DNA from: a phage
DNA length: 64,000 bases
Sequence record: PZ179882.1
Strand: one strand, 5' to 3'
This document shows, piece after piece, positions 37,275-38,220 of this stretch. Within the stretch, counting starts at the first letter, position 1. Every line of letters starts with the position of its first letter. Under the pieces are notes generated by a model. The model was not told the origin of the DNA and did not search any database. It saw nothing but the letters and a program-made list of their open reading frames with translations. Made by a program: the position numbers and the translations under genes.

Positions 37275-37350
37275 TGGTCGAGGCAGTAGGGATCGAACCT
37301 ACGACCTAGGACTTAGAAGGTCCTTGCTCTTCCTTCTGAGCTATGCCCCG
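37275..37350 (-). tRNA. tRNA-Arg (anticodon UCU)
   Basis: 76 nt cloverleaf folded by eye; loop CUUCUAA; T-loop GTTCGATCC; encoded CCA. Confidence 0.85.
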
Positions 37351-37354
37351 TAAT

Positions 37355-37429
37355 TGGGTGACCGATGGGAGTCGAACCCATGACTACGAGAATCACAATC
37401 TCGAGTTCTACCAACTGAACTACGGCCAC
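37355..37429 (-). tRNA. tRNA-His (anticodon GUG)
   Basis: 75 nt cloverleaf; loop UUGUGAU; T-loop GGTTCGACTCC; encoded CCA. Confidence 0.8.
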
Positions 37430-37543
37430 ATTAATACCTACTCCAACAATCAAGATGTCTTCACACGAAATTAAGAGAAGAGTGATCAGTTCAACCCCTA
37501 TAATCGCGTCAAGTAGATATTAATGTGACAGTTGTCACAAATT

Positions 37544-37618
37544 TGGCGGACGTGATAGGATTCGAACCTATAACCAATCGCTTAACAGGCGATCGCTCTG
37601 CCATTGAGCTACACATCC
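37544..37618 (-). tRNA. tRNA-Asn (anticodon GUU)
   Basis: 75 nt cloverleaf; loop CUGUUAA; encoded CCA. Confidence 0.8.
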
Positions 37619-37622
37619 AAAT

Positions 37623-37709
37623 TGGTGGGGAGTGATGGAGTCGAACCACCCGAGTCGCAATGACAATGGATTTACAGTCCACACCGCTACCTCTACGGGA
37701 TAACTCCCC
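37623..37709 (-). tRNA. tRNA-Tyr (anticodon GUA)
   Basis: 87 nt with long variable arm; loop CUGUAAA; encoded CCA. Confidence 0.75.
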
Positions 37710-37721
37710 TAATTCGTAATT

Positions 37722-37796
37722 TGGTGGCCCTGGGTGGAATTGAACCACCATCTGGCGATTATGAGTCGCTTGCTTGAACCTTCCAGCTACAGGGCC
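37722..37796 (-). tRNA. tRNA with CAU anticodon (Met, or Ile if C34 is lysidine-modified)
   Basis: 75 nt cloverleaf; loop CUCAUAA; one mismatch in D and anticodon stems. Confidence 0.75.
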
Positions 37797-37797
37797 T

Positions 37798-37873
37798 TGG
37801 TGCTGATTGACGGAATCGAACCGCCGACCTTCTCATTACAAGTGAGTTGCTCTACCTACTGAGCTAAATCAGC
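37798..37873 (-). tRNA. tRNA-Thr (anticodon UGU)
   Basis: 76 nt cloverleaf; loop CUUGUAA. Confidence 0.85.
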
Positions 37874-37878
37874 AAAAC

Positions 37879-37968
37879 TGGCGGAGGCGATAGGATTTGA
37901 ACCTATGAGTCGCCGGAGCGACTGCCGGTTTTCAAGACCGGTGCATTAAACCACTCTGCCACGCCTCC
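37879..37968 (-). tRNA. tRNA-Ser (anticodon UGA)
   Basis: 90 nt with long variable arm; loop CUUGAAA. Confidence 0.8.
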
Positions 37969-37970
37969 AG

Positions 37971-38044
37971 TCTCCGTGGCAGGATTTGAACCTACGACAT
38001 TCTGCTCCCAAAGCAGACGCTCTACCAAACTGAGCTACACGAAG
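37971..38044 (-). tRNA. tRNA-Pro (anticodon UGG), CCA not encoded
   Basis: 74 nt; loop UUUGGGA; 3-prime end lacks CCA. Confidence 0.8.
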
Positions 38045-38054
38045 TAAATTAAAT

Positions 38055-38128
38055 TGGAGCGGATAATGAGAATCGAACTCACATCATCAGATTGGAAGTC
38101 TGAGGTAATACCATTATACGATATCCGC
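38055..38128 (-). tRNA. tRNA-Gly (anticodon UCC)
   Basis: 74 nt cloverleaf; loop CUUCCAA; perfect acceptor stem. Confidence 0.85.
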
Positions 38129-38133
38129 AAATT

Positions 38134-38220
38134 TGGTGCGAGAAGTGGGACTCGAACCCACAAGGAAATCATTCCGCAGCATTTTAAGTGCTGTGCCTTT
38201 ACCAATTTGACCATTCTCGC
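38134..38220 (-). tRNA. tRNA-Leu (anticodon UAA)
   Basis: 87 nt with long variable arm; loop CUUAAAA. Confidence 0.85.

Follow-up and report, generated by a model that had tools for sequence, protein, structure and literature searches.

The transfer RNA (tRNA) genes described here are carried by a phage (sequence record PZ179882.1), of which a stretch of 64,000 nucleotides (nt), hereafter called the window, was analysed. The window is Tequatrovirus DNA, and its ten tRNA genes very probably represent the tRNA operon of a T-even phage in a common configuration other than that of T4, namely a mosaic shaped by endonuclease genes, whose tRNAs would act both in codon supply and against host defence. 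ARAGORN called all ten genes on the minus strand, between 37275 and 38220, in the transcription order Leu(UAA), Gly(UCC), Pro(UGG), Ser(UGA), Thr(UGU), a tRNA with a CAU anticodon, Tyr(GUA), Asn(GUU), His(GUG) and Arg(UCU). Rfam model RF00005, used as an independent check, placed each of them above its gathering score, nine at 59-74 bits and the class II tRNA-Tyr marginally so (30.2 bits for a gathering score of 29). According to the ARAGORN coordinates, the genes are separated by 1-12 nt, except for a gap of 114 nt between Asn and His.

Span, anticodons and order were the same as in a first-pass annotation of this DNA. The T4 set given there (Gln, Leu, Gly, Pro, Ser, Thr, Ile and Arg) corresponds to the annotation of NC_000866 and to the ARAGORN calls at the T4 locus. 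Tyr, Asn and His, singled out as additional to that set, were accepted by both programs, and tRNA-Gln, reported missing, was called by neither of them in the window, the stretch to which this absence applies. Its reading of two 3' ends was also borne out: tRNA-Pro has no encoded CCA (it ends in GGAGA, followed by CT and then tRNA-Ser, and T4 is alike), and tRNA-Ser has one (CCTCCG-CCA-G, versus CCTCCG-TAA in T4). As for the departure from the classical T4 set, the gene content does differ, but the arrangement is not an unusual one and is annotated in many Tequatrovirus genomes.

Some of the ten might be pseudogenes or software false positives. The chief suspect is tRNA-Tyr, on account of its Rfam score and of an unconstrained minimum-free-energy fold that is not a cloverleaf. 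Yet the gene was accepted by ARAGORN, it shares 85 of 87 positions with the tRNA-Tyr of T6, which was detected by northern blot and was functional in rescue experiments (PMC13096335), and rV5-like, Felix O1-like and T5-like phages carry homologues that are 83-97% identical. This explanation is effectively refuted.

The cluster is a common arrangement, already deposited and annotated in dozens of Tequatrovirus genomes. The 2.5 kb surrounding it were 99.4% identical to Shigella phage S2_01 and to several Escherichia phages, and 96-99% identical to many further Tequatrovirus genomes. At least 38 phage records covered at least 80% of this entire configuration, and the half running from the CAU tRNA through Tyr, Asn, the spacer and His to Arg was found in about 186-187 records (these counts include duplicate GenBank/RefSeq entries). 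Phage KarlGJung (MZ501089, species Tequatrovirus pyps2t) is annotated with the identical ten tRNAs in identical order, ARAGORN giving the same ten, and its CAU tRNA is labelled tRNA-Ile/ATA. The ten tRNAs, together with an HNH gene at the site of tRNA-Gln, were shared by ACG-C40 (NC_019399), slur03/slur14, UTI-E4, S2_01 and KarlGJung (96-99.4% over 2.5 kb). The T2-type core of the cluster was itself already published in 2008 (PMC2330249).

Operon layout and comparison with T4

By position, orientation and tandem arrangement of co-oriented genes, followed by rnaD, rnaC and a terminator, the cluster belongs to the family of T-even tRNA operons. It is transcribed in the early direction, on the minus strand, with trna.2-trna.4/ipI on one side and rnaD-rnaC/e.8 on the other, and both flanks were colinear with T4 at 86-96% in BLAST alignments, in agreement with annotated relatives. 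The classical set of eight T4 genes was not found: Gln is absent, the Ile and Arg slots hold non-orthologous genes and three extra tRNAs are present. In T4 (NC_000866, 70.9-72.5 kb) the order is trna.2, Gln, Leu, Gly, Pro, Ser, Thr, Ile, segB, Arg, rnaD and rnaC. The window has neither segB nor Gln, and carries in addition Tyr, Asn, His, a structured spacer and an open reading frame (ORF) of 116 amino acids (aa).

Across the cluster, BLAST homology to T4 extended from 38223 to 37777, where it stopped after roughly the first 20 nt of the CAU tRNA, and resumed at 36906 with rnaD. Compared with T4, the cluster is by these alignments a mosaic in which Leu, Gly, Ser and Thr are T4-like and a T2-type block plus a His module lie between the breakpoints. 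The CAU tRNA and tRNA-Arg share only 47 of 75 and 49 of 76 positions with their T4 counterparts (63-64% identity); despite the shared anticodons they are thus distinct genes.

tRNA-Pro is a diverged allele; its anticodon is unchanged, and paired changes relative to T4 affect both its anticodon stem and its T stem. The same allele occurs in KarlGJung and YUEEL01, and not in BP32, T2 or T4; no donor lineage was found for it among the loci examined.

Table 1. Features of the tRNA region, listed in the direction of transcription; positions are those of the window.
Feature	Position	Strand	Remarks
Putative T4-type middle promoter	38918..38942	-	MotA-box-like TGCTTTA at 38942-38936, -10 TATTAT at 38923-38918
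tRNA-Gln stub	38840..38848	-	First 9 nt, TGGGAATTA; from T4 alignment
HNH gene, 202 aa	38227..38835	-	In place of tRNA-Gln nt 10-73
tRNA-Leu(UAA)	38134..38220	-	CCA encoded; 87/87 to T4
tRNA-Gly(UCC)	38055..38128	-	CCA encoded; 74/74 to T4
tRNA-Pro(UGG)	37970..38044	-	No CCA; 62/75 to T4, 63/75 to T2
tRNA-Ser(UGA)	37879..37968	-	T2 allele, CCA encoded; 90/90 to T2; 87-nt body identical to that of T4
tRNA-Thr(UGU)	37798..37873	-	CCA encoded; 73/76 (96%) to T4; T2 has an ORF there
CAU tRNA	37722..37796	-	T2 allele, CCA encoded; 75/75 to T2, 47/75 to T4 tRNA-Ile
tRNA-Tyr(GUA)	37623..37709	-	Class II, CCA encoded; 86/87 to T2, 85/87 to T6
tRNA-Asn(GUU)	37544..37618	-	CCA encoded; 75/75 to T2
Structured spacer element, 95 nt	37430..37524	-	14-bp closing stem; 3' end abuts tRNA-His +1
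tRNA-His(GUG)	37356..37429	-	C73, T at -1, 3' end CAC-C-CA
tRNA-Arg(UCU)	37275..37350	-	T2-type, G3·U70, CCA encoded; 49/76 to T4, 74/76 to T2
ORF, 116 aa	36906..37256	-	phrog_3355 (E=8e-53); same-length coding sequence after tRNA-Arg in T2; function unknown
rnaD (species 2 RNA) homologue	36794..36909	-	88/119 to T4 with divergent centre; near-identical to T2 (T2 allele)
rnaC (species 1 RNA) homologue	36649..36787	-	138/139 to T4
Intrinsic-terminator-like hairpin and T run	36575..36598	-	Sequence conserved with T4; end of the tRNA transcription unit

Relationship to T2 and other T-even arrangements

The order in T2 (PV648363) is Gln, Leu, Gly, Pro, Ser, an ORF, the CAU tRNA, Tyr, Asn, Arg and a second ORF. 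Three window tRNAs (CAU, Asn and Ser) were 100% identical to those of T2, and Tyr and Arg differed from them at one and two positions, respectively (Table 1). Brok-Volchanskaya et al. (2008, PMC2330249) described the T2L region as lacking segB, with two ORFs of unknown function, CCAG on tRNA-Ser and four extra tRNA genes, Met(CAU), Tyr, Asn and Arg. The window shares with T2L the absence of segB, the series CAU-Tyr-Asn with the alternative Arg, the downstream ORF and the CCA(G) of tRNA-Ser. It departs from T2L in having Thr instead of an ORF, in lacking Gln and in carrying the spacer element and tRNA-His between Asn and Arg. At this last point T2 reads Asn-CCA-AATA-Arg, and the window Asn-CCA-AAT, then 19 nt, the 95-nt element and tRNA-His, then ATTA-Arg, i.e. 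an insertion of about 190 nt relative to T2. Judged on gene content, the window is a relative of the T2L arrangement (EMBL AJ880101), not an identical one.

Other T-even phages displayed further combinations. In T4 and T6, a GIY-YIG endonuclease gene, segB, stands between Ile (Tyr in T6) and Arg, whereas the window phage has no segB. T6 carries Gln, Leu, Gly, a Pro/Thr chimera, a T4-type CAU tRNA and Tyr, followed by segB. The 'tRNA-Thr' annotated in T6 (AP018814; 643-717 of the extracted locus) was not called by ARAGORN. At its 5' end it reads TCCGTGTAGCTCAG, as if the 5' portion of tRNA-Pro had been joined to the tRNA-Thr body, which points to a deletion chimera that would have removed Pro and Ser. 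BP32 has both the HNH gene of the window type and a SegB-type gene, the latter exactly where the window has Asn, the element and His. YUEEL01, 99.4% identical over shared sequence, has an intact tRNA-Gln, no HNH gene and eleven tRNAs. From these comparisons, the region can be described as a series of exchangeable cassettes with endonuclease genes at their borders.

In the rnaC homologue of BP32 (383-476 of its locus), ARAGORN also called a 94-nt 'tRNA-Lys(ttt)' that was seen in neither the window nor T4. It is probably a false positive arising from the tRNA-like 3' domain of rnaC (GGTTCGAATCC T-arm).

The tRNA-Gln site and the HNH gene

Homology to T4 ran from trna.2 through nucleotide 9 of tRNA-Gln, broke off, and resumed three bases before tRNA-Leu. 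tRNA-Gln is absent because the HNH gene replaced its nucleotides 10-73; the remaining stub ends 4 nt before the HNH ATG. The encoded protein matched phrog_14736 'HNH endonuclease' with E=5e-124, and PF01844 in Pfam at 17.3 bits, under the cutoff of 21.4. Among 522 phage records with the same flanks, the HNH gene was a minority allele (64 records), the rest keeping Gln between those flanks. Its product was at least 99% identical in 59 records, and beyond this group only remote relatives sharing the core were encountered. Presence/absence polymorphism at one site among near-identical genomes, combined with near-invariance across diverged backgrounds, is the signature expected of a recently spreading free-standing homing endonuclease gene, with predicted activity and target. 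Such a gene would here have deleted the tRNA gene that adjoins, or contains, its presumed target.

SegB offers a published parallel: its preferred cleavage site lies inside the tRNA-Asn of T2L, and in mixed infection the T2L region was converted to T4 type in 99.6% of the cross progeny (PMC2330249). By sequence comparison, the cluster is a recombinational mosaic, very probably shaped by homing endonucleases, in which the window phage keeps the T2-type block (Ile2-CAU, Tyr, Asn, the different Arg and the ORF), a different free-standing HNH gene has overwritten tRNA-Gln, and a laterally shared unit of element and tRNA-His stands between Asn and Arg.

The same observations could be taken further, the tRNA content being mostly a by-product of selfish DNA, set by the last homing-endonuclease cassette to arrive, with weak or no selection on single tRNAs. 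The SegB conversion rate, the overwriting of Gln, the near-invariance of the HNH protein over diverged backgrounds and the fact that BP32, T2, T6, T4, YUEEL01 and the window each represent a different combination of the same parts are all in line with it. Compensatory changes in stems (in Pro, and in the T stem and pair 7:66 of His) nevertheless indicate purifying selection on function, and the anticodon set closely follows the codon bias of the phage. We regard this extreme version as distinctly unlikely and retain an endonuclease-shaped mosaic with functional tRNAs.

Identity of the CAU tRNA

The CAU tRNA would be a lysidine-type tRNA-Ile2 reading AUA, not a tRNA-Met, with its anticodon presumably modified by TilS. 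Full-length matches were found in 5424 of 5426 E. coli genomes at no more than 81.6% identity (median two places per genome), every one of those listed being annotated as tRNA-Ile. Its whole anticodon arm, AGCGACTCATAATCGCCAG, was that of an E. coli tRNA-Ile(CAU), including the Ile2-type feature C29-G41 (AGCGACUCAUAAUCGCCAG in both). The acceptor stem reads GGCCCUG/CAGGGCC, hence C4-G69 and C5-G68, pairs that Ikeuchi and colleagues are said to have described in 2005 as TilS determinants. E. coli tRNA-Ile2 (ileX/ileY and the prophage ileZ-type) shares the CAU anticodon, the anticodon arm, both of these pairs and A73, at about 80% identity overall, and is unlike the phage tRNA in the D arm, which is unusual in the latter (GCUGGAAGGUUCAAGC).

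Codon supply

Codon usage in 97 ORFs of the window was compared with that of 42 annotated E. coli K-12 genes. The most enriched codons in the phage were AGA (7.6x), ATA (5.1x), GGA (3.6x), TCA (3.4x), AAT (3.3x) and ACA (3.2x), followed by ACT (2.9x), TTA (2.9x) and TAT (2.5x). The top six, and eight of the top nine (all but ACT), are cognate to encoded tRNAs (hypergeometric P = 3.6e-6, with 13 cognate codons among 61). AGA, ATA, GGA, TCA, ACA and CCA were used 1.6-2.3 times more on the plus strand, which carries baseplate and other late genes, and the totals of Asn and Tyr codons were 1.6-1.8x those of the host. The comparison of anticodons with late and early codon usage that the first-pass annotation had proposed thus matched eight of the ten tRNAs to phage-enriched codons: demand explains these eight, Asn and Tyr included, Pro weakly and His not at all. 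These eight tRNAs would read the codons most over-used by the phage, and more so in its late genes.

Codon supply might even be the sole function of the cluster, matching the AT-rich codons of the phage, especially the late ones, to a host pool in which the tRNAs for them are scarce, with no part in defence. All eight enriched codons (from AGA to TAT) being read by encoded tRNAs, the stronger enrichment on the late-gene strand and the high totals of Asn and Tyr codons speak for this. It leaves tRNA-His unexplained, however, His codons being less frequent in the phage (18.1 per 1000) than in its host (26.0 per 1000). CAA is enriched 1.6x, yet tRNA-Gln(UUG) was lost in 64 records, and the tRNA-Tyr of T6 alters plating on Septu strains (PMC13096335). 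A function limited to codon supply is accordingly judged unlikely, and the preferred reading keeps a role in defence beside it.

Anti-defence role

For the window tRNAs, such a role would follow by analogy with published experiments on other phages. Septu cleaves tRNA-Tyr in the variable arm, and infection under Septu is restored by the T6 tRNA-Tyr when over-expressed or amplified; T2, which has a tRNA-Tyr, is resistant, and T4, which has none, is sensitive (Chihara et al. 2026, PMC13096335). The tRNA-Tyr of T5 counters retron-Eco7 (PMC11555353). Window and T6 tRNA-Tyr qualify as the same gene (Table 1), with an identical variable arm, the region cut by Septu. In T6 the gene adjoins segB, which amplifies it, whereas the window phage lacks segB and this route of amplification is unavailable to it.

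PARIS AriB cuts the host tRNAs Thr(UGU) and Asn(GUU) at 40|41, beside U36-A-A-U39, Asn(GUU) being a secondary target, and yields minor products for His(GUG) and Pro(UGG) (PMC12409363). The window tRNA-Asn reads UAAGC|G (G39, G41), with no UAAU motif, and its tRNA-Thr UAAUG|A (G40). Both differ at or beside the AriB cut site, which makes resistance a candidate effect. In the proposed scheme, tRNA-Tyr, and probably Thr and Asn, would replace host tRNAs destroyed by Septu or retron-Eco7 (Tyr) and by PARIS AriB (Thr, Asn).

The three tRNAs Tyr, Asn and His account for three of the four tRNAs with GUN anticodons, which, with Asp as the fourth, are the targets of colicin E5. They might therefore be mainly spares against Septu/PtuAB, retron-Eco7, PARIS AriB and colicin-E5-like enzymes. 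The Septu cleavage of tRNA-Tyr with rescue by phage dosage, the contrast between T2 and T4, the AriB products for Asn, His and Pro, and the loss of the UAAU motif in the window tRNA-Asn agree with this. On the other side, codon demand accounts well for Asn and Tyr too, we know of no defence system with tRNA-His as its main target, the published tests concerned T6 and T5 tRNAs rather than those of the window phage, and the T6 tRNA-Tyr is itself cut by Septu. A mainly anti-defence purpose of the three is possible but doubtful.

We favour codon supply and defence together, against which several points must be set. The codon comparison rests on only 42 E. coli K-12 genes and on length-based ORF calls from a single window of 64 kb. 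For tRNA-Pro the fit to codon demand is weak (CCA 1.45x). tRNA-His meets no codon demand (CAT 1.1x, CAC 0.3x, and a total below that of the host), has no demonstrated defence target and lacks the G-1 identity element. Lastly, since Septu cleaves the T6 tRNA-Tyr too, protection there is a matter of dosage, not of resistance (PMC13096335).

tRNA-His and its upstream element

tRNA-His has a GUG anticodon and a C73 discriminator, and no encoded G-1: a T stands at -1 here and in each of the 18 distinct homologues examined from phages, for a G in E. coli hisR. G-1 opposite C73 is the major determinant for histidyl-tRNA synthetase (PMC9976931); charging cannot be assumed, and the gene still encodes a tRNA with a His anticodon. 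Covariation of pair 7:66 and of the T stem, seen over six genera, shows that this tRNA is under selection. Numbering its first G as G-1 was considered and rejected: the U8-A9 connector is destroyed, and it is in the standard register that pair 7:66 covaries. The 3' end in the window, CAC-C-CAA, is one C short of CCA, whereas every relative examined, the Tequatrovirus genomes with the same cluster included, has the full CAC-C-CCA. No 100% match to the window was found at tRNA-His among 50,697 phage records. The short CCA is private to the window, and is either a mutation or a homopolymer sequencing error.

The 114-nt spacer upstream of this gene folded at -32.7 kcal/mol (z=-4.4), and none of 200 shuffles was as stable. 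At this place, 18 distinct sequences belonging to five or more genera share an element of 94-107 nt (window 37430-37524, L006 1508-1602, L007 1504-1598, L014 172-278 and L015-L024 were the loci compared). Its closing stem of 14-15 base pairs (bp) ends exactly at tRNA-His +1, and its interior was swapped for at least six unrelated sequences among different phages. Over ten distinct arm pairs all 140 cells of the stem were paired, with three pairs changed on both sides, for a mean of 94.4% in shuffles (none of 500 reached the observed value) and 40-57% in slid registers; each 5' arm had been picked as the best complement of its 3' arm, which favours pairing in this test. Read from the opposite strand, 18 of the G·U cells would turn into A·C, and the structure is therefore one at the RNA level, in the tRNA sense. 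The spacer sequence was present in 356 phage records and annotated in none.

A search of Rfam at permissive thresholds, over the cluster and eight related loci, returned no family for the element, only tRNA and sub-threshold noise (Plastid-ycf2, sX4, YrlA and tRNA-Sec overlapping tRNAs). That the spacer is a degenerate tRNA (e.g. the fourth GUN tRNA, Asp) was rejected, as neither ARAGORN nor Rfam called one and the interior is unrelated in other phages. The element resembles rnaC and rnaD of T4 in being a structured non-tRNA segment of a tRNA transcript, delimited by tRNA processing sites. It differs from them in having no sequence similarity, a conserved closing stem with interchangeable interiors and a constant attachment to tRNA-His. 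About 100 nt of upstream sequence and tRNA-His occur as a unit in Karamvirus and Jiaodavirus (Enterobacter and Klebsiella phages). The 97-99% identity of the tRNA in spite of the distance between these genera indicates lateral transfer.

Acceptor stem of tRNA-Arg

tRNA-Arg(UCU) displays G2-C71, G3·U70, G4-C69 and A73, which compose the bacterial alanine acceptor-stem identity set (PMC9976931), and retains the arginine determinants A20, C35 and U36. T2 has A3-U70 at the place of G3·U70. Within this type of cluster, G3·U70 is the common allele; it was found in KarlGJung, YUEEL01 and BP32, and also in 145 records at 99% identity or more (by arithmetic on search counts). A dual Arg/Ala identity is possible from these residues. 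Both the conserved element fused to a tRNA-His without G-1 and the G3·U70 of tRNA-Arg are apparently undescribed.

A bolder proposal, which we consider very improbable, is that the closed stem element of 95-107 nt and the tRNA-His without G-1 make up a distinct, laterally mobile RNA unit whose stem would direct a non-canonical 5' maturation of tRNA-His or release a stable small RNA; with the G3·U70 tRNA-Arg, these would be T-even tRNAs of deliberately altered identity or processing. If true, such a maturation could leave an extra 5' nucleotide substituting for G-1, and the alternative product would be a stable small RNA comparable to rnaC and rnaD of T4.

Transcription and flanking regions

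In T4, the entire tRNA transcript is driven from a middle promoter immediately upstream and ends after the species I RNA gene (PMC2330249). In the window, a T4-type middle promoter is predicted from its motifs as a putative assignment (Table 1), and the intergenic region that holds it (38849-38945) is that of T4 save two mismatches. If the region is transcribed as its T4 homologue is, a single RNA of about 2.3 kb would cover the HNH gene, all ten tRNAs, the 116-aa ORF, rnaD and rnaC and end at the terminator near 36575. Host RNase P, 3' exonucleases and the CCA-adding enzyme would then free the tRNAs, the latter enzyme being needed for tRNA-Pro and, in the window, for tRNA-His; the same cuts would also yield rnaD and rnaC. 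A consensus promoter scan gave 19 weak sigma-70-like matches, versus 11.3 ± 3.4 in shuffles, none of them convincing within the cluster. A candidate promoter in the spacer of 114 nt (TTGACG...) was discarded: the -35-like hexamer is TCAACG in Jiaodavirus and no -10 follows.

The 5' end of the 116-aa ORF is nearly matched by primer #24 of PMC2330249. This ORF is equivalent to the one, downstream of tRNA-Arg, called trna.2 of T2L in that study of SegB, a different gene from trna.2 of T4. The stable RNAs rnaC and rnaD of T4 are of unknown function (PMC3014915), and neither matched an Rfam family at permissive thresholds. ORFs flanking the cluster gave sub-threshold Pfam matches only (DUF5092, Cytochrom_B562).

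The rnaC terminator segment (T4 70825-70859) was found three times on the minus strand of the window, at about 36600-36566, 36043-36011 and 35351-35320. Each of the latter two lies after one of a pair of paralogous ORFs of unknown function (phrog_2280; 36052-36522 and 35363-35923). This duplication of 'ORF plus terminator' (35320-36600) does not occur in T4. Upstream of the cluster, the locus of the internal head protein gene ipI (39814-40193, minus strand) was not colinear with T4, which matched it in two short and partly rearranged segments (76% over 67 nt and 97% over 59 nt), a pattern that suggests another allele of the internal protein.

Conclusion

Taken alone, the finding that the window phage carries a widespread non-T4 tRNA cassette is of little weight; T4 represents one of several T-even tRNA arrangements. 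The locus illustrates how homing endonucleases (SegB in T4 and T6, the predicted HNH enzyme here) may rewrite a tRNA repertoire, even to the point of deleting a tRNA gene. It likewise illustrates how phage tRNAs may take part both in codon supply and in escape from tRNA-cleaving immunity, the presence or absence of tRNA-Tyr predicting whether T2, T4 and T6 are sensitive to Septu.

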